The notes under the pieces were generated by a model. It saw only the letters and a program-made list of their open reading frames with translations, was not told the origin of the DNA and did not search any database. Positions 5,379 through 57,156 of a stretch of DNA of 64,000 bases are shown here, in pieces (positions within the stretch are counted from its first letter, which is position 1; each line of letters opens with the position of its first letter). The DNA is from Bdellovibrionales bacterium (GTDB lineage Bacteria > Bdellovibrionota > Bdellovibrionia > Bdellovibrionales > JAKFYE01). The stretch covers positions 1,563,992 through 1,627,991 of the forward strand of contig OZ220494.1 in assembly GCA_965116215.1 (NCBI GenBank), read 5' to 3'. The position numbers were made by a program, and so were the translations under genes.

Positions 5379-6686
5379 ATGAAAGTTGAAATGGAAGAAA
5401 TATCTAAGTTGGAACGGAAACTCCATATTGAAGTGCCGGTGGAAATGGTCAGGTCGGCCTTTGAGAGGGCTTATAAAAAGGTGCAAAAAGACACCACTCT
5501 AAAAGGCTTTCGAAAGGGAAAGGTTCCTATCGGTCAGATTAAATCCCTATATGTTCAGGATGTTCAATCCAAGGTGTTGAATCAAATGGTCCAATCGTCT
5601 TATGTACAGGCAATGACTGAAAAACAATTGCATCCCATAGGCTCGCCTAAGTTTCATATTTCTTCTATTGAAGAGGATAAACCGTTTAAGTTTTCTTTTG
5701 AGGTTGAAATACGTCCAGAAATTAACCTCAAAATATATAAGGGTTTAGAGGTTGAAAAAGAAATATTAGATGTCAATACAGAACATGTTGTTAATAAAGT
5801 TATTGAAAATCTTAGGAATCAGAAGGCTGAAACAACCCCTGTCTTAGATATTCGGCCGGCCCAAATGGGAGATGTCGTGAGGATAGACTTTAACGGGACA
5901 GTGAATGGTCAACCTTTAAATAAAGGGTCGGCAAAAGACTATGATCTTGAGTTAGGGTCTCAATCGTTTATTCCAGGATTTGAAGAAGGGATCGTTGGAA
6001 TGAATATTAATGAAACGAAAACACTGAACCTGACTTTTCCTGAAGACTATAGTAAGGATCTTGCTAATGTTCCTGTTCAGTTTGAGATTCAATTGAAGTC
6101 TTTAAATAAGAAGCGACTTCCAGAAGTGAATGATGAATTTGCCAAAAGTATCGGCTTGGAAAACTTTAAAAGCATGAAACAAAAAATTTTAGAGGACCAT
6201 ATCAATTTAGAAAAAAAGAGAATAAAGGAAGATTTAAGAAAAAGAATTATCAAAGTGTTAGTGGATAAAAACCCTGTGGAGGCCCCAAGCTCTCTTGTTA
6301 AAGAGCAAAAAAACTTACTCATTGAAGATGTTAAAAAGAATATGACCACAAAGGGCTTGTCGGAAGAGGATTTCAAATCCTATGTTAAAAAATGGGATGC
6401 TCAACTTCAACAGTCTGCTCACTTTATGGTGTGCTCTAGTTTTCTTATTCATGAGATTTCTGATAAGGAAAATTTAAAGTCTACAGGGGTAGATGTTGAT
6501 GTGAAAATTAAAGAATATGCTCGCCAGACGGGTATGGATATAAAGAAAATTCAAGATTTTTATACTAAAAAAGAAAATGTGGAGCGGCTCCGTTTTAAAA
6601 TTTCTGAAGATAAGGTTGTAGACTTTTTATTGAGTCAGTCTAAGATCAAGGAAGTTCCTAAAGATAAGATCTCTCAGCTCAGTTAG
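5379..6686 (+). CDS. tig: Trigger factor
   Basis: 435 aa. The N-terminal ribosome-binding motif GFRKGKVP and a central FKBP-like PPIase region (GDVVRIDFNGTVNGQP...FIPGFEEGIVGM) are present. Confidence 0.93.
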   Translation: MKVEMEEISKLERKLHIEVPVEMVRSAFERAYKKVQKDTTLKGFRKGKVPIGQIKSLYVQDVQSKVLNQMVQSSYVQAMTEKQLHPIGSPKFHISSIEEDKPFKFSFEVEIRPEINLKIYKGLEVEKEILDVNTEHVVNKVIENLRNQKAETTPVLDIRPAQMGDVVRIDFNGTVNGQPLNKGSAKDYDLELGSQSFIPGFEEGIVGMNINETKTLNLTFPEDYSKDLANVPVQFEIQLKSLNKKRLPEVNDEFAKSIGLENFKSMKQKILEDHINLEKKRIKEDLRKRIIKVLVDKNPVEAPSSLVKEQKNLLIEDVKKNMTTKGLSEEDFKSYVKKWDAQLQQSAHFMVCSSFLIHEISDKENLKSTGVDVDVKIKEYARQTGMDIKKIQDFYTKKENVERLRFKISEDKVVDFLLSQSKIKEVPKDKISQLS

Positions 6687-15454: not shown

Positions 15455-16224
15455 TATTGAAGGTCTTTCTCTTTTTGGACAACCCAGTCATAACCTTTTT
15501 CCTCTAGTTTTGAAGCGAGGTGGCTGTCTCCAGATTCGACAATACGTCCATTATAAAGAATATGAACATAGTCTGGAACAATATGATTGAGTATTCTTTG
15601 ATAGTGGGTAATAAGAAGAATCGCTCGCTCTTTAGAGCGCATAGAATTCACTCCGTTTGCAATGATTTTAAGAGCATCAATATCTAAACCAGAATCAGTT
15701 TCATCTAAGAGACAGAGTTTTGGTTGTAAGACAAGCATCTGTAAAATTTCATTACGTTTTTTTTCACCACCAGAGAAATCTTCATTTACTCCGCGAGTTA
15801 AGAAGCTAGTATTTAAACCAACTATTCCTAGCTTTTCAGAGAGGTATTTTATAAATGTTTTTTCATCTGCGGGCTTTATACCTTGCGACTTACATATTTG
15901 ATTATATGTATTTAATAAAAACTGTAAATTGCTGAGCCCAGGTATTTCTACTGGATATTGAAAGGCTAAAAATATGCCTTTTTGAGATCTTTCATAAGGC
16001 TTTAGGGTCAGTAGATTGACTTCATTGAATCCATCTTTGTATGTTATGGATCCGTCTATTTCTTTGTATTCAGGGTGTCCTGCTATCACCTTTGCCAGAG
16101 TGCTTTTTCCTGAACCGTTGGGTCCCATAATCGCATGAACTTCACCCACATTGATTTTTAAATTTAATCCTCTAAGAATTTCTTTATTGTCTACTGTTAT
16201 TTTTAAATTTTTTATGTCTAGCAT
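15454..16224 (-). CDS. sufC: Fe-S cluster assembly ATPase SufC
   Basis: ABC ATPase motifs GPNGSGKST, FSGGEKKRNEILQ and LLDETDSGLD. An ATGATAA stop/start overlap links it to sufD. Confidence 0.95.
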   Translation of the reverse strand: MLDIKNLKITVDNKEILRGLNLKINVGEVHAIMGPNGSGKSTLAKVIAGHPEYKEIDGSITYKDGFNEVNLLTLKPYERSQKGIFLAFQYPVEIPGLSNLQFLLNTYNQICKSQGIKPADEKTFIKYLSEKLGIVGLNTSFLTRGVNEDFSGGEKKRNEILQMLVLQPKLCLLDETDSGLDIDALKIIANGVNSMRSKERAILLITHYQRILNHIVPDYVHILYNGRIVESGDSHLASKLEEKGYDWVVQKEKDLQ

Positions 16225-25104: not shown

Positions 25105-25157
25105 TGACAATATTTTAGAAAAGTTGTCTAAAGAAATTTTGTTTTCTAAGATGACAA

Positions 25158-25220
25158 AGGAAGAGTTTTTCTTAAGGCTTCCAAAATCTCAGACAACTCT
25201 GAGGTTCGCAGCTCGTCTCC
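25158..25220 (-). repeat. Dispersed repeat module, copy of the element at 40702-40765 (inverted orientation)
   Basis: The reverse complement ggagacgagctgcgaacctcagagttgtctgagattttggaagccttaagaaaaactcttcct aligns to 40702-40765 with about 8 differences in 64 nt. Confidence 0.8.
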
Positions 25221-25300
25221 GCCAGAGCCTAAAATCTGGTTGGATAGGGCTCGATATATTCAGGGATAGAACAAACTGCATTTCTGCAGATATACCCTTC

Positions 25301-25440
25301 TGTAGGAAAAAGACTTTATTATCTTCCCCTTAAAGCTCAAGCAGCTTTGAAGGGCGCAAAGCGTCTCCTCTCTATGAAGAAGATACGCATTGCGCTTCAA
25401 AAAACTCGCTTTAAGAGAAAGATAAAAATCTTTTTCCCCA
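25301..25440 (-). repeat. ~140-bp palindromic (MITE/REP-like) element, copy A
   Basis: Terminal inverted repeats GGAAAAAGACTTTATTATCTTCCCCTTAAAGC ... GCTTTAAGAGAAAGATAAAAATCTTTTTCC. The reverse complement aligns along its whole length to 40425-40557. Confidence 0.8.
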
Positions 25441-32417: not shown

Positions 32418-32494
32418 GGGCCTATAGCTTAGTTGGTTAAAGCATCCGGCTCATAACCGGAGGATCCGAGGTTCGAGTCCTCGTAGGCCTACCA
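32418..32494 (+). tRNA. tRNA with CAU anticodon (Met or lysidine-modified Ile2; acceptor stem C4/C5 and the AGGCCT-ACCA 3' end favour Ile2)
   Basis: A 77-nt cloverleaf: acceptor GGGCCTA/TAGGCCT (G1-U72), D stem GCTT/AAGC, anticodon stem TCCGG/CCGGA with loop CTCATAA, T arm CGAGG-TTCGAGT-CCTCG, and an encoded CCA. Confidence 0.9.
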
Positions 32495-32764
32495 ATTTTC
32501 TAGAAGATTTTATGGACCTCTCTGACAGAACAGTATGTTGCGTTTTCTAAATCAATTCCATCTGTTCAATTTAAGATTTCTATTTATTGGAAAAAATCAA
32601 TCCTTATGAATCAGAGATTCGAGTCGGTTTTTGAAGGCTTGTTTTTTGGATTTTATTGAGAATTCACCTCTAACAACTTTGGTCTTTTTGGAAAAAGTGC
32701 ATGGAGTGAGGTGTCCCATATTCACAGTTCGACAGTTTTTACTTCTTTATGATAGTTTTAAATT

Positions 32765-33178
32765 GGTTTTGCAGGTGATCGCTGTGTGGGGTATCTGTAG
32801 TTCATGTCTTTTCTTGGACTTGTAAACAGATATGTCAGTACAGAGGAAAGTCCGGACTCCAAATGGCAACGTAGAGGGTAATACCCTCCCATCGCAAGGT
32901 GAGGAACAGTGGAACAGAAAGGATGTCCAGAGCATTGAGCCTAGGGCTGGGAACGGGAAGCCTTGGGGGAGCTGCTGGAGTGAAATCAGCTAAACTCTAC
33001 GTGGAGCAAGATCAAATAGGAGAGCACTTGAGCACGGCCAGTGCAAGCTTTCGGGTGAGATCGCTAGAGGGCTCTTGTGAAAGAGCCCCCAGATGAATGG
33101 TCCCCTCCTAAATTTGTTTTTGTCGAGCAGGTTTAGAAGACAGAATCCGGCTTAACGCAAATCCCTCGATCGATAAAC
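32765..33178 (+). ncRNA. rnpB: RNase P RNA (bacterial type A)
   Basis: The universally conserved P4 strands GAGGAAAGTCCGG (about 32842) and ACAGAATCCGGCTTA (about 33140) are present. A P3-like hairpin TATCTGT...ACAGATA lies upstream of P4. The ends are inferred from partial 5'/3' complementarity (GGTTTT..GATCG..GGGG versus CCCT CGATC G ATAAAC) and are uncertain by about 15 nt. Confidence 0.9.
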
Positions 33179-37819: not shown

Positions 37820-38557
37820 TTACAAAGCTTCGTCGATAATATTTTTTAACTCATCTTCAAGTTTCTTAAGATCCTTAACAAATAAAGTGTGTTTTTTACT
37901 TAAAAGTTTTCTCAAGCGAGGTCCATTCTTATATGATGATATTATCCACTTTGCACTGTCTCTAAAGAACTTGACCGTGAAATCAAAAGTTTTCTCAAAT
38001 GCTTGCTGCAGCGGTAATTCAGCTTTAAGATTTAAACCCACATCTACTAGGAATATTCCCATAGCCATTGAATAAGCCCCTATACCAACCCCCTGAGCAA
38101 AAGCAGCCGCCCCTCCCCCTACAGCAGCACCTCCAGCAATCGATGGGTTTGTGATTAACGGGATTGTGAATAACGCTAATACTAAAATGGGAACACCTAT
38201 ACTCGTTAAGTTAGTTTTTATTAAAAATTTCTTTAGTGGTTTTATACCTATTGGATGGACCAACTTTTCGCAATCTTGACCTAGATAACACTTGTAAAGA
38301 TGAACTCTTTTTAAGGGTTGGTTGGAACTAGGGGGGACTGTGTAGTAAATGGTTTCAGTCCTAATCTCAAGCCATTCCGACTGAGAGAGTGGCTCAATTC
38401 CTTTTTGATAAATCCTAGTTATTTGCCAGTGTTTATACTGCAAATTGCTAATAGGCGGATGAGTTCCTTCTTGCGTCTGTTTAGTTGTTTGGGCCAAAGA
38501 GCCTGTAGAGAGTGTTAATCCCACAGCTAGAGTGAAAATGAATTTTAAAGGGTTCAT
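37820..38557 (-). CDS. Signal-peptide / Gly-Ala-rich (glycine-zipper-like) membrane protein, paralogue 1
   Basis: 245 aa. The signal peptide MNPLKFIFTLAVGLTLSTGSLAQ is nearly identical to that of the 39288-39893 product. It has a Cys pair (YKCYLGQDCEKLV), the segment AGGAAVGGGAAAFAQGVGIGAYSMAMGIF, and a conserved C-terminal RLRKLLSKKxxLFV. Confidence 0.7.
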   Translation of the reverse strand: MNPLKFIFTLAVGLTLSTGSLAQTTKQTQEGTHPPISNLQYKHWQITRIYQKGIEPLSQSEWLEIRTETIYYTVPPSSNQPLKRVHLYKCYLGQDCEKLVHPIGIKPLKKFLIKTNLTSIGVPILVLALFTIPLITNPSIAGGAAVGGGAAAFAQGVGIGAYSMAMGIFLVDVGLNLKAELPLQQAFEKTFDFTVKFFRDSAKWIISSYKNGPRLRKLLSKKHTLFVKDLKKLEDELKNIIDEAL

Positions 38558-38609
38558 AAAAATTCCTCCTGTTACAGGTTAGTCTTATATATATGCCCTA
38601 TGTTTAAGG

Positions 38610-38625
38610 AGCAAGTGCTGTGCTA
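38610..38625 (-). promoter_or_regulatory. Degenerate sigma-54-type promoter (TAGCACAGCACTTGCT; GG->AG at -24)
   Basis: Positional homologue of the consensus promoter at 39946-39961. The same -12 TTGCT is present but the -24 element reads TAGCAC. Confidence 0.45.
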
Positions 38626-38708
38626 GGTTATAGAGTTTGGTTTTTATTTGAAAAAAAAGGGGATTGTTTTTAAAAGGAGCCAACTTCTTGTTTAAAACAA
38701 AACAATGA

Positions 38709-38728
38709 GCAAACTTTATACAGTTTGC
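38709..38728. promoter_or_regulatory. Perfect 20-bp palindrome GCAAACT-TTATAC-AGTTTGC (candidate activator binding site)
   Basis: The 7-bp arms are exactly complementary. It lies 84 bp upstream of the -24 element of paralogue 1 and directly next to the (AAAAC)2 tract. Confidence 0.4.
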
Positions 38729-38856
38729 CAAGTTCTTTTACATTTTTTCATCATTTCAAAGAGTCTGTCTTTAGTTGTCAGGCTTTTAGATTTTATATGT
38801 CACAAATCCCTATATCAGCTCTTTAGAGCCAAGAGTTTTAAGATTTTGCCAGACAA

Positions 38857-39040
38857 GGGGAGGAAAGGGTTTTTGTCTTTGTCTTAAAGCGAGTTTTCCA
38901 AAGCGCAGGGGCGTATCTTCAAGGAGATACAGTTTATTTTCAACTTGAGTATATGAGCTTTAGTCTGGAGCGGAAAAGGATTTTTATCTTTCTTTTAAAG
39001 GGAGTTTTCCAAAGTATAGGGGTGTATTTGTAATTGAGAT
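38857..39040 (+). repeat. Two tandem direct half-copies of the palindromic-element left arm (copy B)
   Basis: ggaaagggtttttgtctttgtcttaaagcgagttttccaaagcgcaggggcgtatcttc and ggaaaaggatttttatctttcttttaaagggagttttccaaagtataggggtgtatttg. Both resemble 40430-40490. Confidence 0.7.
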
Positions 39041-39164
39041 AGCCACATTTTTGAAGGATTTTAAGTGAGAAGTAGAACATATCTGTGACTGTGAAGTTTC
39101 ATAACGCTTAAATCATGTCACTCTGTTTGCGCTTTTTCTTTTGGTAAAAGATCTTAATAAATAG

Positions 39165-39219
39165 TTATAAAAAACCGCTGACAGACACTCTTTGTGTTTT
39201 TGAGAGTCTTCAGCGGTTT
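39165..39219 (-). terminator. Rho-independent terminator of the 39288-39893 gene
   Basis: Inverted repeat AAACCGCTGA(cagacactc...gagagtct)TCAGCGGTTT, followed on the minus strand by TTTTTTATA. Confidence 0.75.
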
Positions 39220-39287
39220 GAAAGTCGTGTTTCAATGAGAGGTTTTGAGTTTTTTGCTCAAACCTTAATTCCCATTAGTGAGAAAAT

Positions 39288-39893
39288 TTATCGTACGTAG
39301 TTTCTGGGCTCCTCTCTTTTCAAAATTATCTTTTTAATAAGATATTCTAAGTTCTGCTCAAGCTGCTCAATATTGCGAACAAATAAGACATCCTTTTTAC
39401 TTAAAAGTTTTCTCAAACGAGAGCCTTCTGTTAAATTTCTAGTTAGATTATGTCCTCCTTTCTTCATTGTTGTTGCTCCTCCTATTAATGAAACTGCACC
39501 CGTGGCTCCTGCTGCTAACGTTGTTGATGGCACTAGGACGACTGCACCCACCATCACTCCTGCCCCGAAGAGCAAAGCTCCGACTCCGAATACGCCAGCT
39601 TTCAAGTTCTCCTGTTTTAACGTGTTTCTTAACTCATTTAAGGTCACCACTTCATCAACCAAGGGTTCACAACTCTCATTGTTATGACGCTCATCTCTAG
39701 TGCATGTATAGACCACAATGGCTGTGAGTTCTTCATTATTTACCTGTTCAGATGCTTTTCGGACCTCAATCCATTTGAGAAAAGAGGGGTCAGCATTTTT
39801 TTCTTTTATTGTGGTGGTTTTTTGAGCCAAAGAGCTGATAGAGAGTGTTAATCCCACAGCTAGAGTGAAAATGAATTTTAAATAGTGATTCAT
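39288..39893 (-). CDS. Signal-peptide / Gly-Ala-rich (glycine-zipper-like) membrane protein, paralogue 2
   Basis: 201 aa. It has signal peptide MNHYLKFIFTLAVGLTLSISSLAQ, a Cys pair (YTCTRDERHNNESCEPLV), the segment GVFGVGALLFGAGVMVGAVV...AAGATGAVSLIGGA, and C-terminal RLRKLLSKKDVLFV. A strong AGGAGG lies upstream of the ATG. Confidence 0.7.
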   Translation of the reverse strand: MNHYLKFIFTLAVGLTLSISSLAQKTTTIKEKNADPSFLKWIEVRKASEQVNNEELTAIVVYTCTRDERHNNESCEPLVDEVVTLNELRNTLKQENLKAGVFGVGALLFGAGVMVGAVVLVPSTTLAAGATGAVSLIGGATTMKKGGHNLTRNLTEGSRLRKLLSKKDVLFVRNIEQLEQNLEYLIKKIILKREEPRNYVR

Positions 39894-39945
39894 AAAAAGT
39901 TCCTCCTGTTATAGGTTAGTCCTATTGTATGTTCTATGTTTAAGG

Positions 39946-39961
39946 AGCAAGTGTTGTGCCA
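39946..39961 (-). promoter_or_regulatory. Consensus sigma-54 (RpoN) promoter TGGCAC-AACAC-TTGCT
   Basis: The minus-strand sequence TGGCACAACACTTGCT matches TGGCAC-N5-TTGCW at every specified position. Its -12 GC lies about 54 nt upstream of the ATG at 39893. Confidence 0.8.
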
Positions 39962-40034: not shown

Positions 40035-40269
40035 AAAACAAAACAAAACAAAACAAAACAAAACAAAACAAAACAAAACAAAACAAAACAAAACAAAACA
40101 AAACAAAACAAAACAAAACAAAACAAAACAAAACAAAACAAAACAAAACAAAACAAAACAAAACAAAACAAAACAAAACAAAACAAAACAAAACAAAACA
40201 AAACAAAACAAAACAAAACAAAACAAAACAAAACAAAACAAAACAAAACAAAACAAAACAAAACAAAAC
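40035..40269. repeat. Perfect pentanucleotide microsatellite (AAAAC)47, read as (GTTTT)47 on the gene strand
   Basis: 235 bp with no interruption, counted directly and consistent with the KQNKT-periodic ORF in the track. The homologous position at 38694-38703 has 2 units. Confidence 0.98.
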
Positions 40270-40274
40270 AATGA

Positions 40275-40294
40275 GCAAACTTTATACAGCTTGC
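40275..40294. promoter_or_regulatory. 20-bp near-palindrome GCAAACT-TTATAC-AGCTTGC (homologue of 38709-38728, one arm mismatch)
   Basis: Located immediately distal to the microsatellite, 314 bp upstream of the sigma-54 -24 element. Confidence 0.35.
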
Positions 40295-40424
40295 CAAATT
40301 GTTTTACAGTTTTCCATCATTTCAAAGAGTCTGCCTTTAATGGTCAGGCGTTTAGATTTTATATGTCACAAATCCCTATATCAGCTCTTTAGAGCCAAGA
40401 GTTTTTAGCTTTTACCAGACAATA

Positions 40425-40557
40425 GGGGAGGAAAGGATTTTGATCTTTCTATTAAAGCGAGTTTTTCAAAGCGCAGGGCGTATTTCGAAGAAAGACGAGC
40501 CTGCGGCCTTTGAAGCTGTTTGAGCTTGAAGGGGAAGATAAAAATCCTTTTCCTACA
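40425..40557 (+). repeat. ~135-bp palindromic (MITE/REP-like) element, copy C
   Basis: Arms GGAAAGGATTTTGATCTTTCTATTAAAGC ... GCTTGAAGGGGAAGATAAAAATCCTTTTCC. It aligns end to end with the reverse complement of 25301-25440. Confidence 0.8.
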
Positions 40558-40981: not shown

Positions 40982-41941
40982 TTATATTTTACTTCGCTCC
41001 TTAAGACTTAAAGGATGGTGTTTTTCTAAGGTGGTGCGTAGAGAATCAAAATCTAAGTGCGTGTACTTTTCTGTTGTTTTCAATGAAGAGTGTCCAAGCA
41101 GATCCTGTATGGTACGTAGATCTGCTCCTCCACGCAGAAGATGGGTGGCGTAGCTATGCCTTAGGGCATGAGGAGAGAGGGGCCGCAAAAGTCCTGCTTG
41201 AGTGCCACAGGATCTGATAAGGGTATAGGCCTGTCGTTCAGAGAGTTTGGGGTTTAAAAGATATCCTGTTTTTTTATTAGAGGTTTTCAATTCTTCAGTG
41301 AGTATGGAAGGCAGACTAATATAGCGTTCTTTAGATCCCTTTCCTAATATGCGAAGTTTGGATTTCTCTAATATGACGTCTTTCCACTGTGAGTGACAGG
41401 CTTCGGAAACTCTTAGTCCACCGCCATAGAGAAGTAGAAAGAGCCGTCGTTTTCTAATCAAAATGTCCGACTTGGGCTGATCTTTAAACGCTTTTTTAAA
41501 ATAGTTCAAAACAGCTAACACTTCATCCAGGGAGAGGTATCGTGGGAGTTTTTCATCAACCTTTGGGAGAGTGATGGTGGTCGAGAGATCATGAACTAAA
41601 TGTCCTTCTTCAAACAAAAACCGCAAAAAACTTTTAAGGGTTGAAAATTTTCTCTGGCGTGTGGAAATAGCTAAATCTGACCAAATTTTCTTCCCCACAT
41701 CGATGAGCAGTTGACAGTTTAGATCTAAATTTTCCAATTTTTGGGACCTTTTATTTTTTTCAATATAATCGGCTAGTTGTAAAAAATCGGAAGAATAGGC
41801 CCGAAGAGTCTCAGGACTAAAGGACTTTAAATTCTCTAATGATTCCAACCAAATATCAAAATACTTGGACAGGAAAGGTTTTGGGGCTTTGTCAGAATTT
41901 CTCACTAAAATTTCCAAGATAATGCATTTTTTTACTTGCAT
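40982..41941 (-). CDS. Tyrosine site-specific recombinase, XerC/XerD family
   Basis: Catalytic signature GGGLRVSEA...HALRHSYATHLL...LLGHSSLKTTEKYTH, plus an N-terminal SAM-like domain (TLRAYSSDFLQLADYI). Confidence 0.88.
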   Translation of the reverse strand: MQVKKCIILEILVRNSDKAPKPFLSKYFDIWLESLENLKSFSPETLRAYSSDFLQLADYIEKNKRSQKLENLDLNCQLLIDVGKKIWSDLAISTRQRKFSTLKSFLRFLFEEGHLVHDLSTTITLPKVDEKLPRYLSLDEVLAVLNYFKKAFKDQPKSDILIRKRRLFLLLYGGGLRVSEACHSQWKDVILEKSKLRILGKGSKERYISLPSILTEELKTSNKKTGYLLNPKLSERQAYTLIRSCGTQAGLLRPLSPHALRHSYATHLLRGGADLRTIQDLLGHSSLKTTEKYTHLDFDSLRTTLEKHHPLSLKERSKI

Positions 41942-43179: not shown

Positions 43180-44616
43180 ATGATTATGGGCTTATTATTC
43201 AGGGTAAGGGTTTTCTTACTTTTCATTGTTTGTTTTTCTTTTTCCTTATTATATGGGGCCGATGAAAAGGATTATAGAAATCTACGTCCATCTGTTGGGA
43301 TTGTTCAGTCCATTAAGGGTTATGGGACTGGTTTTTTTATAACAGAAAATTTATTTGTCACTGCCTACCATAATATTCAAGCTTCAGATAATGCGAGTAA
43401 TGAGCGATTGGGAAGAGATCCGTTGCGTGTCTATACTCTGGGGAAAAAGGATTATGGAAGAGTTCTAGTTGTTGATCCTCAAAATGATTTGGCGATTATT
43501 AAGATGCAAAGAAATGATTATAAGCCACTCAGTATAGGAAGTGATACAGATATTATTCGGGGTAAGGAAACTTTTACTATTGGTTATCCCCCCGATATTG
43601 CTTTGATCAATAGAGGAGAAAATGAAGCAGTTATAAGAGCTGTTGTGGCTCAGGGCTTTATTGGGATGAAGATGGGGAATGAAATCTTTGGTATTACAGC
43701 TTTTGCTTCAAAAGGGAGTAGTGGCTCCCCTGTTTTTTCAGAGGATTTGAAAGTCGTTGGGGTAGTTGTATTAATTACTCCAAAATCAATTTCAGGCTAT
43801 CAGACTTTTGTTACGCCGATCCATAAATTAAAGACTCTTATTGATAGAAATAAAGACCTTTTAGAAAGAGAGGGTGGAATGGGTTTTGGTCATATCTCTT
43901 CTGAGCCGTTGAAGAGGCGTGCTTTTGATGCCGATGTCAAAACAGCAGAGGATATGTTTATTTTGGGTTTAATATATAAAGAGGGTTTGAGACATAGACG
44001 GCCTAACTTTCAGAAAGCTCATTATTGGCATGAACGTGCAGCGAAGAGTGGATATAGAGATGCTGCTTTTTCCGTGGCCCAAATGTATTATACGGGCAAA
44101 GGGGTGAAAAAAGATTTTCAAAAGGCGTTTTACTGGTTTCAGGTGGCCGCAACTCATGGACATAGGGAGTCGCAATTTCATGTTGCACTTATGCACTATC
44201 GAGGGGAGGGAACAGCTCAGAACTTTTCAAAGGCCTTTGAAGGTTTTAAGAGCCTTGCAGAACAGAGGAAGTATAGAGGGGCATCAGCTCAGGTGGCGTT
44301 AATGTATTATGCGGGCAAAGGGGTAAAAAAAGATTTTCAAAAGGCATTTTACTGGTTTCAGGTGGCTGCAACCCATGGACATAGGGACTCTCAGTATAAT
44401 GTTGCACTTATGCACTATCGAGGGGAGGGAACAGCTCAGAACTTTTCAAAGGCCTTTGAAGGTTTTAAGAGCCTTGCAGAAAAGGGACATAAAATAGCGC
44501 AACATGATCTGTCTGTAATGTATGCTAGAGGAGAGGGAGTTTTAAAAAATCTTAAAAAAGCAACATATTGGTGGAAGAAGAGCAAAGGGGAAGAAGGTTC
44601 ACAGTGTTTTTATTAA
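43180..44616 (+). CDS. Secreted trypsin-like (S1) serine protease domain fused to C-terminal Sel1/SLR repeats
   Basis: Signal peptide. The catalytic triad context is VTAYHN, NDLAIIK and GSSGSPVF. There are at least 5 Sel1-type repeats (A..MY..G.GV.KD..KA..W...AA..G). The start lies 22 nt after the activator gene. Confidence 0.8.
   Translation: MIMGLLFRVRVFLLFIVCFSFSLLYGADEKDYRNLRPSVGIVQSIKGYGTGFFITENLFVTAYHNIQASDNASNERLGRDPLRVYTLGKKDYGRVLVVDPQNDLAIIKMQRNDYKPLSIGSDTDIIRGKETFTIGYPPDIALINRGENEAVIRAVVAQGFIGMKMGNEIFGITAFASKGSSGSPVFSEDLKVVGVVVLITPKSISGYQTFVTPIHKLKTLIDRNKDLLEREGGMGFGHISSEPLKRRAFDADVKTAEDMFILGLIYKEGLRHRRPNFQKAHYWHERAAKSGYRDAAFSVAQMYYTGKGVKKDFQKAFYWFQVAATHGHRESQFHVALMHYRGEGTAQNFSKAFEGFKSLAEQRKYRGASAQVALMYYAGKGVKKDFQKAFYWFQVAATHGHRDSQYNVALMHYRGEGTAQNFSKAFEGFKSLAEKGHKIAQHDLSVMYARGEGVLKNLKKATYWWKKSKGEEGSQCFY
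44083..44487 (+). repeat. Tandem 219-bp (73-aa, two Sel1 units) near-identical duplication inside the protease-Sel1 gene
   Basis: cgggcaaaggggt(g/a)aaaaaagattttcaaaaggc... recurs at 44093 and 44312. About 175 bp align with roughly 13 substitutions and no indels. Confidence 0.85.
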
Positions 44617-46719: not shown

Positions 46720-48135
46720 CTATTCATTGGCTGCTTCATCTCTTAAATCATCATCTGCTGAACCCAGTCCATACTTATCAACTCTGTATCTCATGGATCG
46801 AAATGTAATATTTAAAAGCTTAGCAGCCTTTTTTTTGACTCCCGAGCTTTTGTGGATCGCTTTAATCAATAACTCTTTTTCAATTTGTCCAATGATCTTT
46901 TCTAGATCAATTCCCTCATTTGTAATTTCAATTTCATGACTAGAGGCTATTTTTCGTCCAGATGATGTATTGACAAAAGGGGGTAGAGACTCAGGTAATA
47001 TCACAGAGCCACCCTCAAGAGCCACTGTCCTTTCAATAATATTTTCTAATTCACGGACATTTCCCGGATATTGATAAGACTTTAATGTACTCATGGCTTC
47101 ATCAGAGATGCCGCTAATACTCTTATTCAATCGCTCATTGTATTTTTTTAAAAAATGATGAGCTAAAGTAGGGATATCTACAGATCGATTTCTCAACGGA
47201 GGTGTTTTAATTAAAATCACATTCAATCTATAATAAAGATCTTCTCTAAATTGCCCTGAGCGAACCATTTCCTCTAAGTTTCTATTTGTAGCAGCTATAA
47301 TCCTCACATTTATTTTAATATCTTCTGTTGCTCCTATTCGGCGAATAGTTCTTTCTTGAATGGCTCTGAGCAGTTTCACTTGAATATTCAGTGGAAGCTC
47401 TCCAACTTCATCGAGAAAGAGTGTGCCGCTGTTAGCAACTTCAAAGAGACCTAACTTATCGGAAACTGCACCCGTGAAAGCTCCTTTTTTATGACCAAAC
47501 ATCTCTGACTCTATAAGATTTTCAGGAATAGCCCCACAGTTAACAGTTACAAAGGGGTTTTCTTTTAAGGGACCACTGTAATGAATAGCCTTGGCTACCA
47601 TTTCTTTGCCTGTTCCACTTTCTCCAATAATTAATACATTTGTGGGAGACTGAGAAACACGTTCAATGAGATCATAAATTTTATGCATTTCATCTGAATT
47701 ACCTACTAAATTTTTGAAGCTGTATTCTTTATTTAACTCCTTCTTTAAATTTCTGTTTTCAATTTCTAGATTTTTACTTCGGAGCGCATGTTTAATATTA
47801 ATTCTGACTTCATCAATTTTAAATGGTTTTGTGATATAGTCATAGGCTCCCATTTTCATGATTTCCACGGCGGACTCTGTAGTTCCAAATGCCGTAATGA
47901 TTATAAATAGCGTGTCAGGACAATTATTTTTTACGTATTCTAAGACTTCAGTTCCCGTTAGGTTAGGCATTTGCAAATCTGATATGATCAGATCAAAGGC
48001 TCTCTTTTTTATCATATCTATTGCCACTTGACCATCTTCAGCGAGGGTGACATCATAGCCTTCTTTTTTGAGCATGATATCTAAAAATTCTCTTATGGAT
48101 TCCTCATCATCAATAACAAGAATTCGTGGCTTCAC
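46720..48135 (-). CDS. pilR: Sigma-54-dependent response regulator, PilR-like (REC + AAA+ + HTH)
   Basis: Receiver domain (ILVIDDE...DLIISDLQMP), AAA+ core (GESGTGKEMVAKAIH, GAFTGA) and a Fis-type HTH. It lies directly downstream of a PilS-like kinase in the pil cluster. Confidence 0.85.
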   Translation of the reverse strand: MKPRILVIDDEESIREFLDIMLKKEGYDVTLAEDGQVAIDMIKKRAFDLIISDLQMPNLTGTEVLEYVKNNCPDTLFIIITAFGTTESAVEIMKMGAYDYITKPFKIDEVRINIKHALRSKNLEIENRNLKKELNKEYSFKNLVGNSDEMHKIYDLIERVSQSPTNVLIIGESGTGKEMVAKAIHYSGPLKENPFVTVNCGAIPENLIESEMFGHKKGAFTGAVSDKLGLFEVANSGTLFLDEVGELPLNIQVKLLRAIQERTIRRIGATEDIKINVRIIAATNRNLEEMVRSGQFREDLYYRLNVILIKTPPLRNRSVDIPTLAHHFLKKYNERLNKSISGISDEAMSTLKSYQYPGNVRELENIIERTVALEGGSVILPESLPPFVNTSSGRKIASSHEIEITNEGIDLEKIIGQIEKELLIKAIHKSSGVKKKAAKLLNITFRSMRYRVDKYGLGSADDDLRDEAANE

Positions 48136-51039: not shown

Positions 51040-52116
51040 TTAGAAACCAGCCTTTTTGATAAGACGGTCTAGTTCTTCTGGGTCAGGACTATGTTTAAAG
51101 GCTTCTTTAAGCTCTACTTTTCTCTTTAGAATCAAGTTGAGTAGAGATTGATTCATTGTTTGCATTCCTGTTTTGGCTTGTCCGACTTGCATGTTGCTAT
51201 ACACTTGATGCAATTTATCCTCTCTAATTAGATTTCGTATGGCCGGTGTCGGAACGAGCACTTCATAGGCCAGTTCAAGTCCTCCACTTTTTCCAGGTAA
51301 AAGTTGCTGAGAGATAATACCAACTAATATAAAGCTCATTTGTACTCGGACTCTATTTTGTTGCTCTGATGGGAAAACAGTAACAAGTCGACTTACCGTC
51401 TGAACAGCACTATTTGTATGTAGTGTTGTAAGGACAAGGTGACCTGTTTCTGCTAAGCGTAGGGCTTGCTCAATAGTTTCCAAGTCTCTGAGTTCTCCAA
51501 TGAGGCAGTAATTCGGATCTTGTCTTAAGAGGTGTTTCGTGGAATTTTGATAAGACCAGGTGTCAGGCCCTACTTCTCTTTGAGAGACAATGCTCTGTTT
51601 GTGGTGGTGAATATATTCTATAGGGTCTTCGATGGTAATGATATGACTTCTATGTTCTGCGTTGACCTTATCTATTAGAGATGCGAGTGTTGTCGATTTT
51701 CCTGACCCTGTTGGCCCTGTTACTAATATTAATCCATTGGGTGCATTTGTAAAATTTGCGACGGAAGAAGAAAGCCCTAATTGTTCAAAGTTAGGAATTT
51801 TATAGGGAACTCTACGAAAGGCACCTGACACCGCCCCTTTTTGATAGAATAGATTTCCTCTAAATCGTGCGGTCTGTTTCCATCCAAAACTGAAATCTAG
51901 CTCTTTTGTCTCTTCAAATCTTGCTTTTTGTTTATCTGTTAAAACAGAATAACAAAGACGTTTTGTATCTTCGCTTGTTAGCTTAGGGGCTTTTATTCTT
52001 AAGATCTGCCCCCCTATACGTACAATAGGTGCAGAACCTGTGACAATATGTAGATCTGTTGCATGCTCTTTATCAATAACAACTTTTAATATCTGTTGTA
52101 ATGTGAGGTTGATCAT
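51040..52116 (-). CDS. pilT: Twitching-motility retraction ATPase PilT
   Basis: Walker A GPTGSGKST, HIITIEDPIEY, RQDPNYCLIGELRD, and a His box (TGHLVLTTLHTNSA). Confidence 0.92.
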   Translation of the reverse strand: MINLTLQQILKVVIDKEHATDLHIVTGSAPIVRIGGQILRIKAPKLTSEDTKRLCYSVLTDKQKARFEETKELDFSFGWKQTARFRGNLFYQKGAVSGAFRRVPYKIPNFEQLGLSSSVANFTNAPNGLILVTGPTGSGKSTTLASLIDKVNAEHRSHIITIEDPIEYIHHHKQSIVSQREVGPDTWSYQNSTKHLLRQDPNYCLIGELRDLETIEQALRLAETGHLVLTTLHTNSAVQTVSRLVTVFPSEQQNRVRVQMSFILVGIISQQLLPGKSGGLELAYEVLVPTPAIRNLIREDKLHQVYSNMQVGQAKTGMQTMNQSLLNLILKRKVELKEAFKHSPDPEELDRLIKKAGF

Positions 52117-53849
52117 TTTAAGTCCTTAGTTGAGCTATTGATGACCTCACTTATTGTAATTTCGCCTTCTTTTAATTTTTTTAGAGCTGATTTTCTAAGT
52201 GTTTTCATTCCTGATTTGAGAGCACATCTTTTTAATTCCATGGGACTTACTCTTTGAAATACTAACTTTTTGAGTTTATCTGTGAATGTCATAACTTCAT
52301 AAATAGCCATTCTACCCTTAAAGCCCGTTCCATTACATTGATGACATCCTGTCCCTTTCATCACTTGAAATGTTCCAATTTCTTCTTTTGGTACTTCTAG
52401 ATCTATTAATACTTGAGGGTCCACTGAGATTGGGGTTTTACAGGAGTTACAAATTTTTCTCACAAGTCTTTGGGCCACAATAAGATTTATTGTCGATGTT
52501 ACAAGAAAAGGTTCTATACCCATATTTAATAATCTATTTACAGTTGAGGGTGCATCGTTTGTATGGAGAGTGCTCACTACAAGGTGACCTGTTAAGGCGG
52601 CCTTAAATGCAACTTCAGCCGTTTCCAGGTCGCGAATTTCACCCACCATTAGAATATCTGGATCTTGCCGTAGAAAGCTCCTTAATGCAGACGCAAAATT
52701 AAGGTCAATAGCAGAGTTCATTTGAACCTGATTAATGCCTTCTAGGTTGAATTCGACAGGATCTTCTGCGGTTGAAAGGTTCACATTGGGTTTATTAAGT
52801 TCTGCTAATGCAGAATAAATCGTTGTTGTTTTTCCTGACCCTGTGGGTCCTGTTATCAATACCATTCCATAAGGTTGATATATCCCATCTTGAAACGTAT
52901 CGAGTTGTTCTTGTGTAAATCCTAGACGAGTCATGTCTAATTGAAGAGTTGACTTATCTAATAGACGCATAACAACTTTTTCTCCAAATAACGTTGGGAG
53001 AACGCTGACACGAAAATCAATTTCCTGATTGTCTTTTAAAGTTATTTTTAATCGGCCGTCTTGAGGTCGTCGTCTTTCTGCAATATCCAACTTGCTCATA
53101 ACTTTTAAACGGCTAGTGACCGCACTGGCGATTTCGGAGCTGGGTTGGATTTTTTCATGTAATTGTCCATCAACACGAAACCGTATGCGGAATTTTTTTT
53201 CATAGGGCTCGATGTGAATATCTGATGCCTTGAGTTTAATGGCTTCACTTAACATGAGGTTGACAAACTTTATAATAGGCGGACTATTCTCTGATTTTTT
53301 TGTATCTATAGATGTAGATGTAGATGTAGATGTAGATGTAGATGTAGATGTAGATGTAGATGACATTTTTTCGACAAAAGTGTCTTTTTCTACTTCTGTT
53401 AATATCTCTTCATATCTTACTTCTGTTTGATAGTATCTTTCAATGGCACTTGTGATTTGAGCTTCTACAGAGAGAGCGATTTCAATTTTACAATGAGTGA
53501 GGAATGATAAATCATCTCGAACAGCTACATTAGATGGGTCAGCCATTGCTACAACAAGTGTATTAGAAGCTTTTGAAATGGGAATGAGTTTATTTTTTTC
53601 GCAGAAGTGGCGAGGGATAAGTTTGATAACCTCTGGGTCGATCTCAAAAGTTGATAGATTGATGGATGGAACAGAATATTGCTCAGACATAAATTCAATG
53701 AGCTGTTCTTCATTGACGTACCCTAGCTTTATAAGAGTTTCACCAAGACGCCCACCCATTGCCTTTTGTTCTTTGAGTGCTTGTTCTAATTGATGAATAT
53801 TAATAAAATTTTTGCGAACTAAGATTTCCCCAATATTTTTTGCACCCAT
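52113..53849 (-). CDS. pilB: Type IV pilus assembly ATPase PilB (GspE family) with an internal (Ser-Thr)8 linker
   Basis: N-terminal T2SSE_N/MshEN-like domain, Walker A GPTGSGKTT, LRQDPDILMVGEIRD, and a tetracysteine motif (CNSC...CHQCNGTG). Confidence 0.92.
   Translation of the reverse strand: MGAKNIGEILVRKNFINIHQLEQALKEQKAMGGRLGETLIKLGYVNEEQLIEFMSEQYSVPSINLSTFEIDPEVIKLIPRHFCEKNKLIPISKASNTLVVAMADPSNVAVRDDLSFLTHCKIEIALSVEAQITSAIERYYQTEVRYEEILTEVEKDTFVEKMSSTSTSTSTSTSTSTSTSIDTKKSENSPPIIKFVNLMLSEAIKLKASDIHIEPYEKKFRIRFRVDGQLHEKIQPSSEIASAVTSRLKVMSKLDIAERRRPQDGRLKITLKDNQEIDFRVSVLPTLFGEKVVMRLLDKSTLQLDMTRLGFTQEQLDTFQDGIYQPYGMVLITGPTGSGKTTTIYSALAELNKPNVNLSTAEDPVEFNLEGINQVQMNSAIDLNFASALRSFLRQDPDILMVGEIRDLETAEVAFKAALTGHLVVSTLHTNDAPSTVNRLLNMGIEPFLVTSTINLIVAQRLVRKICNSCKTPISVDPQVLIDLEVPKEEIGTFQVMKGTGCHQCNGTGFKGRMAIYEVMTFTDKLKKLVFQRVSPMELKRCALKSGMKTLRKSALKKLKEGEITISEVINSSTKDLK
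53311..53362. repeat. Hexanucleotide repeat (GATGTA)8, equal to (TCTACA)n on the coding strand and encoding (Ser-Thr)8 in PilB
   Basis: Eight perfect units counted directly. The repeat is in frame. Confidence 0.95.
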
Positions 53850-53870: not shown

Positions 53871-53886
53871 AGCCACTTTTGTGCCG
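53871..53886 (-). promoter_or_regulatory. Sigma-54-like promoter candidate upstream of pilB (CGGCAC-AAAAG-TGGCT)
   Basis: GG and GC are correctly spaced (GG-N10-GC), with 9 of 11 matches to TGGCAC-N5-TTGCT. It lies very close to the ATG, which implies a leader of only about 12 nt. Confidence 0.3.
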
Positions 53887-55117: not shown

Positions 55118-55858
55118 TTAAAATAAGTCTGTCTCATCGTCATCATCATCTGTGGAAAGGTTATCATAGTCATCATCTATGAAGTCATTTTCCAGATCCT
55201 CAAGATCATCATAGTCATTTGATTGTAGGTCATCATCTGTGTTTTCAAAATGTCTTTCATCCATATCATCGAATCTTGAAGATATTTCTTTATTATCCTC
55301 ACTTTTTATCGTTCTTGTTGTTTCAAGATTGGCCAGAGGGTTGGTTATTGAATGTTTGGGAGGGTTTTCGTCTTTTGTAATTTCGGCAAGGCTTCGGACT
55401 GTGGGTTTATTGAACTCTTTTCGGGAGGTGGGTTTTTTAGAAGATTGTTTTTTCCCAGTTGTTTTTTTCTTTGTCTTTTTTTGGGTTAAGGTTTTGGTTT
55501 TCTTCCGAGAGGCCCTTTTTTTAGAAGCTCGTTTTTTCCCGGTCGTTTTTTTCTTTGCCTTTTTTTGGGTTAAGGTTTTGGTTTTCTTCCGAGAGGCCCT
55601 TTTTTTAGAAGCTCGTTTTTTCCCGGTCGTTTTTTTCTTTGCCTTTTTTTTGTTTAAAGATTTGGCTTTCTTTCTGGAGGTGGTTTTCTTTGAAGTTCGT
55701 TTTTTCCCGGTTGTTTTTTTCTTTGCCTTTTTTTTGTTTAAAGATTTGGTTTTCTTCCGAGAGGCCCTTTTTTTAGAATATTGGTTTTTCCCAGTTGCTT
55801 TTTTCTTTGCTATTTGTTTTCGAGTCTTTTTACTTTTTATTCGTCTCTTCTTGGCCAT
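55118..55858 (-). CDS. Lysine-rich, histone H1-like repeat protein with strongly acidic C-terminal tail
   Basis: The N-terminal ~150 aa are almost entirely K/R/T/S/A/G in 28-aa repeats (KKAKKKTTGKKRASKKRASRKKTKTLTQ). The C-terminal ~90 aa are D/E-rich and end in DDDDDETDLF. Confidence 0.75.
   Translation of the reverse strand: MAKKRRIKSKKTRKQIAKKKATGKNQYSKKRASRKKTKSLNKKKAKKKTTGKKRTSKKTTSRKKAKSLNKKKAKKKTTGKKRASKKRASRKKTKTLTQKKAKKKTTGKKRASKKRASRKKTKTLTQKKTKKKTTGKKQSSKKPTSRKEFNKPTVRSLAEITKDENPPKHSITNPLANLETTRTIKSEDNKEISSRFDDMDERHFENTDDDLQSNDYDDLEDLENDFIDDDYDNLSTDDDDDETDLF
55440..55815. repeat. 84-bp tandem repeat (about 4.5 units) encoding the 28-aa basic repeat
   Basis: The landmark TTAA(G/A)G(G/A)TTT(T)GG recurs at 55486, 55570, 55654 and 55738 (period 84). 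Confidence 0.85.
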
Positions 55859-55971: not shown

Positions 55972-57156
55972 TCAGGGGATGATATTATCTAAGGTCCGTG
56001 CTATTGATGGGGGGAAAATCAGTGCGAGATAGACCCCTCCCGACACGCCGCCACTAGATGGGACAAGAGCAAAATAGCCAATGGTTTGTCGCTTAGATTT
56101 TGTGTGAATAGGAAATCTGAGCCCTACTGGCCAGGAATAGTCTTCAATGGGATAATAGATCGCAAAGGCCCCTTTTCCCAGATAAAGATGAATAGTTTCA
56201 TTACCTTTGCTCAAATGTATTCCTACGCTGGGGAGTTCTCCTCCAGGAATTCCAGGCAAGGGTTGGCCGTTGGGTAATCTTTTAATAATGCCCCCTGGTG
56301 GACCATGGAAGACATAGGGTAATGGCATATAAATTTCCATGGCGGGAGTACCGTTCCTGTGGGTAAAGGTACTATAGGCCCCTGGCATTCCAGGAATCGG
56401 AGTGTAGGGTGCGGTCCCTCCCAGTGGGGGGATGAGGGTGGGTGCGCTCAGTATAACCGCATTGTTGCGCCTATCTAGCCGTATAACCTCATGGTTATAA
56501 AAGGGACCTCTATTGAGCCTATAGCTCATATCTAGCTGATCTAGTGGGTGAGTCGTTGTATAGCGATTGGGTGGGTTGCTGTAGTTATAAGGTGATCCGT
56601 TGTATCTATTATAGTTGGTGTAGGGATTGGGAGTATTGCGAGCATTGCGATTGTAATAGAAGTTGTTGTCGTAGGGATTGGGTGGGTTGCTGTAGTTATA
56701 AGGTGAGTCGTTGTATCTATTATAGTTGGTGTAGGGATTGGGAGTATTGCGATTGTAATAGAAGTTGTTGTCGTAGGGATTGGGTGGGTTGCTGTAGTTA
56801 TAAGGTGAGTCGTTGTATCTATTATAGTTGGTGTAGGGATTGGGAGTATTGCGATTGTAATAGAAGTTGTTGTCGTAGGGATTGGGTGGGTTGCTGTAGT
56901 TATAAGGTGAGTCGTTGTATCTATTATAGTTGGTGTAGGGATTGGGAGTATTGCGATTGTAGTAGGAATAGTCCTCATTGTCGTTATCGTCATTGTTGTT
57001 GTAGCCTTGGTGATCGCAGTGAGTTAGGGTCAATAGGCAGAGGGGTAAAAAGAGACTGAGGATCAGCCTTTTTGGTGTTTTATTACGGAAAATCATAAGC
57101 CAGAACTTCTTCTGGGCTTCAGTCGATGAATGCAAAAGATCTGTTGCAGAAATCAT
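55972..57156 (-). CDS. Exported (possibly lipo-) protein with Asn/Tyr/Pro-rich 34-aa tandem repeats and a Gly/Pro-rich C-terminal domain
   Basis: Signal-like LILSLFLPLCLLTLTHC, then four copies of YYNRNTPNPYTNYNRYNDSPYNYSNPPNPYDNNF. An alternative start is the ATG at 57096 (MIFRNKTPKR). Confidence 0.7.
   Translation of the reverse strand: MISATDLLHSSTEAQKKFWLMIFRNKTPKRLILSLFLPLCLLTLTHCDHQGYNNNDDNDNEDYSYYNRNTPNPYTNYNRYNDSPYNYSNPPNPYDNNFYYNRNTPNPYTNYNRYNDSPYNYSNPPNPYDNNFYYNRNTPNPYTNYNRYNDSPYNYSNPPNPYDNNFYYNRNARNTPNPYTNYNRYNGSPYNYSNPPNRYTTTHPLDQLDMSYRLNRGPFYNHEVIRLDRRNNAVILSAPTLIPPLGGTAPYTPIPGMPGAYSTFTHRNGTPAMEIYMPLPYVFHGPPGGIIKRLPNGQPLPGIPGGELPSVGIHLSKGNETIHLYLGKGAFAIYYPIEDYSWPVGLRFPIHTKSKRQTIGYFALVPSSGGVSGGVYLALIFPPSIARTLDNIIP
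56559..56965. repeat. 102-bp tandem repeat: three copies identical by eye (56649-56954) plus one variant copy
   Basis: The unit gattgtaatagaagttgttgtcgtagggattgggtgggttgctgtagttataaggtgagtcgttgtatctattatagttggtgtagggattgggagtattgc starts at 56649, 56751 and 56853. Confidence 0.9.

Follow-up and report, generated by a model that had tools for sequence, protein, structure and literature searches.

Promoters of the sigma-54 class, of which glnAp2 and nifH are classical examples, are recognized by the -24/-12 consensus TGGCAC-N5-TTGCW, and their activators can act over distances of hundreds of base pairs. Phase-variable promoters are known in which a repeat lies between a regulator site and the promoter core, such as the TAAA repeat of nadA in Neisseria meningitidis, the poly-C tract of the Bordetella fim genes and the TA repeat of hif in Haemophilus, while Mycoplasma gene families of the vlp/vsp type combine a conserved 5' cassette of promoter and signal peptide with variable gene bodies. 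Here we describe a locus that shares features with each of these systems: two paralogous genes (paralogue 1 and paralogue 2), together with their control regions, in a stretch of 64,000 nucleotides of contig OZ220494.1 from a Bdellovibrionales bacterium, referred to below in its entirety as the window. To judge from the sequence, paralogue 2 is very probably preceded by a sigma-54 promoter, whereas the homologous site of paralogue 1, in which the first G of the -24 element is replaced by A, is likely to be a weakened one. The coordinates of the features are collected in Table 1.

The site of paralogue 2 reads TGGCACAACACTTGCT on the minus strand (39961-39946). It matches the consensus at all 11 specified positions, with exactly 10 nt between the GG and GC dinucleotides, and is the only exact match on both strands of the window, where 0.01 are expected from shuffled sequences. 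An AGGAGG at 39907-39902 stands 8 nt before the ATG (39893-39891), so that the placement is also correct; the predicted transcription start would fall near 39935, with a 5' untranslated region of approximately 42 nt. The corresponding site of paralogue 1 reads TAGCACAGCACTTGCT on the minus strand (38625-38610), followed by an AGGAGG at 38570-38565 and an ATG at 38557. In both copies the gap between the 16-mer and the ATG, on the coding strand, is 52 nt. The two 16-mers differ by the change of the first G of the -24 GG to A and by one change in the spacer; thus, paralogue 1 retains 10 of the 11 consensus positions, including the second G, the CAC and the TTGCT. An initial annotation of this DNA had reported both sites, the GG to AG difference between them, and the position of the first upstream of a strong AGGAGG and an ATG; all of these bases and coordinates are as it gave them. 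If one mismatch to the consensus is allowed, the window contains 2 matches versus 1.24 expected, and therefore the paralogue-1 site, taken by itself, is not significant. Its meaning comes entirely from its alignment with the paralogue-2 site, of which it is the positional homologue, and it is best described as a degenerate homologue of a sigma-54 promoter rather than a member of the class.

The paralogue-2 site has a counterpart in a related Bdellovibrionales metagenome-assembled genome (MAG; L014), in which TGGCATCTTTCTTGCT is found at positions 5516-5531, before a member of the same gene family (5584-6462) with 28% protein identity to paralogue 2. The gap between 16-mer and ATG is again 52 nt, and when the three sequences are aligned, the matching parts are limited to the -24 and -12 elements and the start codon, the flanks being unrelated. 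By our calculation, the chance of a motif match at that spacing is roughly 1e-6; this conservation, together with the expectation of 0.01 exact matches in the window, leads us to reject a chance occurrence of the motif. Two genes for sigma-54 activators, both with a Sigma54_activat domain, are also present in the window (Table 1), from which we infer that the organism uses sigma-54. Being unique, well placed, accompanied by activator genes and conserved in L014, the site is credible as a sigma-54 promoter, which in itself is ordinary biology.

What can be expected of the site of paralogue 1? GG is found in paralogue 2 as well as in the L014 homologue, and is therefore the ancestral state and the A the derived one. 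In k-mer counts (which are not position-specific) over 720 published sigma-54 promoter sequences (PMC12316311 S2), TGGCAC occurs 236 times and TGGCAT 117 times (353 together), while TAGCAC, TCGCAC and TGACAC each occur 0 times; TTGCAC occurs 17 times, many of these being likely -12 elements and at least one being at the -24 position. The RpoN box contacts the -24 element base-specifically, and rewriting this element brings the activity of wild-type sigma-54 down to about 1% (PMC12096077). In Myxococcus promoters the replacement of GG by TT makes the activity 3- to 11-fold lower without abolishing it (PMC7910581). A weakened promoter is thus likely in paralogue 1, a dead one unproven. The initial annotation had called the -24 GG essential for sigma-54 binding and the promoter crippled: the base is indeed nearly invariant and a weakening is what the k-mer counts point to, but "essential" is too strong a term in view of the Myxococcus data.

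The change has to be seen against the background of the region in which it occurs. The two genes share a cassette with 87% identity (378/435 aligned columns), which begins approximately 360 nt before each ATG and takes in the signal-peptide codons; its parts are compared in Table 1. Reading downstream, its order would be an upstream conserved block, a hairpin, the sigma-54 promoter, a 42-nt leader with the AGGAGG, and the signal-peptide codons; it is found in the family members studied in this genome, which are the two window copies. With 14/16 identical bases the promoter 16-mer is neither protected nor singled out within the cassette, and the single change among its 11 consensus positions agrees with the background divergence. 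The outer edge of both cassettes, which start inside it, is formed by a dispersed palindromic repeat of about 130-140 nt (38856-39027 and 40424-40553), also found in an unrelated intergenic region (25147-25439); its arms resemble GGAAAAGGATTTTTATCTT... and its complement, and it is possibly an element of the REP (repetitive extragenic palindrome) or MITE (miniature inverted-repeat transposable element) type.

Beyond the cassette the two genes have diverged widely. The proteins are 29% identical; their signal peptides are almost the same, and both have an N-terminal domain containing two conserved cysteines, a hydrophobic stretch rich in Gly and Ala, and the C-terminal segment G-[SP]-x-LRKLLSKK-x-x-LFV, which is also conserved. 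A search of 5.8 billion proteins returned only six family members, all on one 1.82-Mb contig, four of which (P0002-P0005) lie outside the window, and a profile search of 1.84 billion representatives returned 13 more distant members. A degenerate DNA pattern for G-x-x-LRK[LI]LS-x-K[DE]-x-L retrieved two family members in one Bdellovibrionales MAG and had no match in metagenome contigs; a match to the peptide pattern in an unrelated Bdellovibrionota MAG, in which TGGCATCACAATTGCT (L022, 3470-3485) precedes the ATG of a gene for a secreted protein by 13 nt, is a chance one. Neither paralogue has a match in Pfam or NCBIfam, and the AlphaFold model of paralogue 2 (mean predicted local distance difference test score, pLDDT, of 55) is too poor for a fold search. 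Two of the six, P0003 and P0004, are called with a shortened N-terminus (MLTLAVG... versus MNHYLKFIFTLAVG...), which suggests that their start region or 5' cassette differs. The term "duplicated gene pair" used in the initial annotation therefore does not describe the locus: the genome holds six paralogues, of which these are two, and only their 5' cassette is alike.

These observations are probably best explained by a genuine sigma-54 promoter in paralogue 2 and a copy of it weakened by drift in paralogue 1, in a family of small secreted or membrane-anchored proteins that would probably be confined to a few Bdellovibrionales-like bacteria. RNA polymerase carrying sigma-54 would read the -24/-12 promoter of paralogue 2 with the help of an AAA+ activator, whose identity and binding site we infer. 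In paralogue 1, the G-to-A transition would most likely lower the binding of the sigma-54 holoenzyme, and the gene would be transcribed less from that promoter. As the change matches the background divergence of the cassette, it can be read as the ordinary drift of one copy, rather than as a designed counterpart to the insertion of a repeat in the other.

Several results weigh against this explanation. The rpoN gene was not found among the scanned open reading frames (ORFs) of the window, so that its presence is deduced from the activators only. A GG-N10-GC motif was likewise not found upstream of four other family members whose upstream DNA could be read (L019, L074, L075 and L073, the last of which follows another gene by 31 nt); sigma-54 control would therefore be a trait of only part of the family. 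Moreover, the site of paralogue 1 may still work, as single-base deviations in GG or GC do occur in characterized Myxococcus promoters (PMC7910581), and the ORF of paralogue 1 is intact with all family motifs kept, which implies that it is still expressed somehow. The last two points, and the 10 consensus positions retained, would also fit an alternative in which the change to AG does no harm: both sites would then be working sigma-54 promoters of about equal strength, and their difference would be without consequence for regulation. We consider this rather unlikely, given the absence of TAGCAC among the 720 promoters, as opposed to 353 occurrences of TGGCAC and TGGCAT, and the base-specific contacts of the RpoN box.

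More unusual than the promoter itself are the six-copy family with its homogenized 5' cassette and the (TTTTG)47 tract upstream of paralogue 2. At the homologous place paralogue 1 has 2 TTTTG units, and it is mostly the tract that accounts for the different distance between an upstream inverted repeat and the -24 element in the two copies (95 versus 325 bp, Table 1). Its purity suggests a recent or ongoing expansion. The net insertion of 230 bp corresponds, by our arithmetic, to approximately 21.9 helical turns, and therefore the inverted repeat and the promoter should be roughly in phase in both copies; a single slip of 5 bp would put them about half a turn out of phase. A short pentanucleotide run, TTGGTTTGGTTTGGTTTGC, is also seen at approximately 2870-2890 of L074, upstream of P0014, a family member of a related MAG; its spacing is not compatible with sigma-54. 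One may then imagine that the six-member family is a contingency gene set of a host-associated Bdellovibrionales bacterium, each copy bearing the same enhancer-dependent sigma-54 cassette, and that individual copies are switched in two ways. In one, (TTTTG)n would slip between enhancer and promoter, and with each 5-bp step the upstream site would rotate by roughly half a turn of the helix; in the other, the -24 element would decay by point mutation, and paralogue 1 would be a silenced or archival copy. To our knowledge, a repeat-driven phase switch acting on the enhancer-promoter geometry of a sigma-54 promoter has not been described, and we regard this scenario, in both of its routes, as improbable.

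The inverted repeat (GCAAAC-N8-GTTTGC, perfect in paralogue 1) is a candidate for one of two roles, that of an activator site or that of the stem in an intrinsic terminator. A consensus scan flags it as terminator-like (8 pairs, 3 of them G-C, with the T-rich tail CATTGTTTTG), and the A-to-G change in the stem preserves pairing as G-U in the minus-strand RNA. Such sites are as frequent in the scan as expected by chance (3 versus 2.9), and the centroid hairpin reaches only -8.7 kcal/mol (z = -1.0). The repeat said by the initial annotation to have displaced the activator site is real (40035-40271); the site itself is unproven and also scores as an intrinsic terminator. The dyad was not found upstream of the L014 homologue, nor was the palindrome GCTCTAAAGAGC, which belongs to a block of 55 nt fully identical between the two cassettes; a search for both candidate dyads near the activator genes gave nothing informative. 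Given the 87% background, an uninterrupted run of 55 identical bases would not be expected (0.87^55, or approximately 5e-4 by our calculation), and the block is an alternative candidate regulatory site. The palindrome occurs once elsewhere in the window, at 15627-15638.

The same block contains the sigma-70-like sequence CTGATA-17-TAAAAT (38818-38790 and 40384-40356), from which, or from the -10-like TACAAT or TATATA just downstream of the -24/-12 motif, the genes could be transcribed by a sigma-70 polymerase; the motif would then not be the working promoter, and the hairpin with its T-run (38729-38708 and 40295-40274) would serve as a terminator or attenuator in the leader, or mark where a small upstream RNA ends. 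The preserved G-U pairing is compatible with such a role. We find this very unlikely, as sigma-70-like sites are no more frequent than chance in our scan (8 found versus 7.7 expected), the two hairpin stretches are not significantly stable (z = -1.0 and -1.7), Rfam finds no family in the cassette in either gathering or E-value mode, and the conservation of the -24/-12 elements at identical spacing in L014 would be left unexplained. We reject an expression of paralogue 1 by read-through from paralogue 2 on account of the strong intrinsic terminator between them (39219-39166), where a 136-nt stretch has a minimum free energy of -35.4 kcal/mol (z = -5.5, with 0/200 shuffles as stable); shielded in this way, paralogue 1 can only be expressed, if indeed it is, from the control region that belongs to it. 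Finally, the initial annotation had seen in the -24 lesion of paralogue 1 and the repeat insertion of paralogue 2 a reciprocal tuning, that is, complementary selected changes that set different expression levels for the two genes; both differences do exist, and in the two features that matter for an enhancer-dependent promoter, but this proposal has very little probability left when the 16-mer has diverged exactly as its surroundings (14/16 versus 87%), the genes are 29% identical members of a family of six rather than a pair, the activator site is only putative, and a displacement of 230 bp need not reduce activation by proteins that act over hundreds of base pairs.

Table 1. Features of the paralogue locus and its surroundings in the window, with the identity of the cassette parts between the two copies.
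Feature	Coordinates	Strand	Remarks
Predicted sigma-54 (-24/-12) promoter, paralogue 2	39946..39961	-	consensus; sole exact match in window; motif and gap kept in L014
Homologous AG site, paralogue 1	38610..38625	-	from alignment to the paralogue-2 site
Shine-Dalgarno AGGAGG, paralogue 2	39902..39907	-	sequence read; paralogue-1 equivalent at 38565-38570
Paralogue 2 gene	39288..39893	-	201 amino acids (aa); signal peptide, two-cysteine N-terminal domain, Gly/Ala-rich hydrophobic stretch, conserved C-terminal G-S-x-LRKLLSKKDVLFV helix region
Paralogue 1 gene (P0006)	37820..38557	-	245 aa; intact ORF; most divergent of the six family members in the genome
(TTTTG)47 microsatellite	40035..40271	-	period 5, 47.4 copies, 100% matches; between inverted repeat and paralogue-2 promoter
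Inverted repeat, paralogue 2, GGCAAGCTGTATAAAGTTTGCT	40274..40295	-	centre 325 bp upstream of GG; one A-to-G change
Inverted repeat, paralogue 1, GGCAAACTGTATAAAGTTTGCT	38708..38729	-	perfect GCAAAC-N8-GTTTGC; centre 95 bp upstream of AG
55-nt block	38785..38839 and 40351-40405	-	100% identical between cassettes; holds palindrome GCTCTAAAGAGC and sigma-70-like CTGATA-17-TAAAAT
Cassette, far-upstream part			identity 89%
Cassette, inverted repeat			identity 21/22
Cassette, repeat end to -24 element			identity 76%
Cassette, promoter 16-mer			identity 14/16
Cassette, leader			identity 87%
Cassette, signal-peptide codons			identity 89.5%
Strong intrinsic terminator after paralogue 2	39166..39219	-	long hairpin, then UUUUUU
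Sigma-54 activator, 358 aa	42081..43157	+	AAA+ domain with GAFTGA motif (read in the sequence) and Fis-type helix-turn-helix (HTH); without receiver or sensor domain; nearest candidate activator
Sigma-54 activator	46720-48135		receiver-AAA+-HTH; domain scan

The window has a G+C content of approximately 37% and carries rpoD, followed downstream by a tRNA-Met (CAT; 32418-32494) and a bacterial class A RNase P RNA (32763-33170), as well as dnaG, Sel1-repeat proteases and a type IV pilus cluster with a PilS/PilR-like two-component pair. A tyrosine recombinase gene (40982-41941), whose product does not reach the equivalog cut-offs for XerC and XerD, is the immediate upstream neighbour of the variable paralogue locus. 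In related genomes the synteny of recombinase, activator and protease is maintained (approximately 81% DNA identity) with a different gene where the paralogues sit, so that the 358-aa activator is conserved beside the recombinase gene in genomes without paralogues at that position. One related Bdellovibrionales genome is rich in ankyrin-repeat genes. In the window, the gene for a trypsin-Sel1 repeat protein directly downstream of the 358-aa activator contains an internal duplication of 219 nt (44082-44481, 94% identical). In the pilus region, CGGCACAAAAGTGGCT at 53871-53886 (minus strand) has the GG-N10-GC arrangement, agrees with the consensus at 9/11 positions, and precedes by 21 nt the ATG of the gene for a PilB-like ATPase (52113-53849), the first in a cluster with pilT, pilC, sensor kinase and sigma-54 response regulator genes; it may be a second sigma-54 promoter. 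Within the PilB-like ORF there is a perfect (TAGATG)9 hexanucleotide repeat (53309-53362), and further, long tandem repeats are found inside ORFs at 55433-55810 (84 nt x 4.5, in the ORF at 55118-55858) and 56561-56965 (102 nt x 3.2, or 204 nt x 1.9). The ORF that holds the latter (55972-57156) has no Pfam match.

If the proposed explanation of the locus is correct, it assigns activator-dependent sigma-54 control to an unannotated family of secreted proteins, in a poorly known and probably host-associated branch of the Bdellovibrionales. The two genes also offer a natural comparison of GG and AG, and hence of the weight of the first G of the -24 element outside the model Proteobacteria. By itself the promoter would be a matter of routine annotation; it is the (TTTTG)47 tract upstream of the intact promoter that would make the locus worth experimental attention.

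The control region of paralogue 2 resembles the classical sigma-54 promoters in its exact consensus, in the spacing of 10 nt between GG and GC, in its position upstream of the gene on the coding strand and in the activator genes nearby. It is unlike them in that the genes controlled are a family of small secreted proteins without a Pfam or NCBIfam match, in that they belong to a Bdellovibrionales-like bacterium with many ankyrin and Sel1 proteins, and in that the activator and its site are only candidates. The site of paralogue 1 is closer to the non-canonical promoters of Myxococcus xanthus (MXAN3778, which has GA, and those of asgE, spi and nla6; PMC7910581), which likewise deviate by a single base in a hallmark dinucleotide and otherwise match well; here it is the first G that has changed (AG, not GA), to a form, TAGCAC, found in 0/720 promoters. 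The organism, the promoter class and the type of protein all differ from those of the Mycoplasma vlp/vsp families, and there is no evidence of switching here, but the layout is similar, with a 5' cassette approximately 87-90% identical through the signal peptide in front of mature proteins with approximately 29% identity. As in the phase-variable promoters, a long and perfect tract separates a conserved upstream element from the core promoter of a gene for a surface or secreted protein of a multigene family; the differences are that the core is of the sigma-54 type, that the unit is of 5 bp and present in 47 units, and that no variation in length was seen, in the one genome available. With a (TTTTG)47.4 tract of 100% purity in a promoter region, the locus is a candidate for a simple-sequence-repeat contingency locus.

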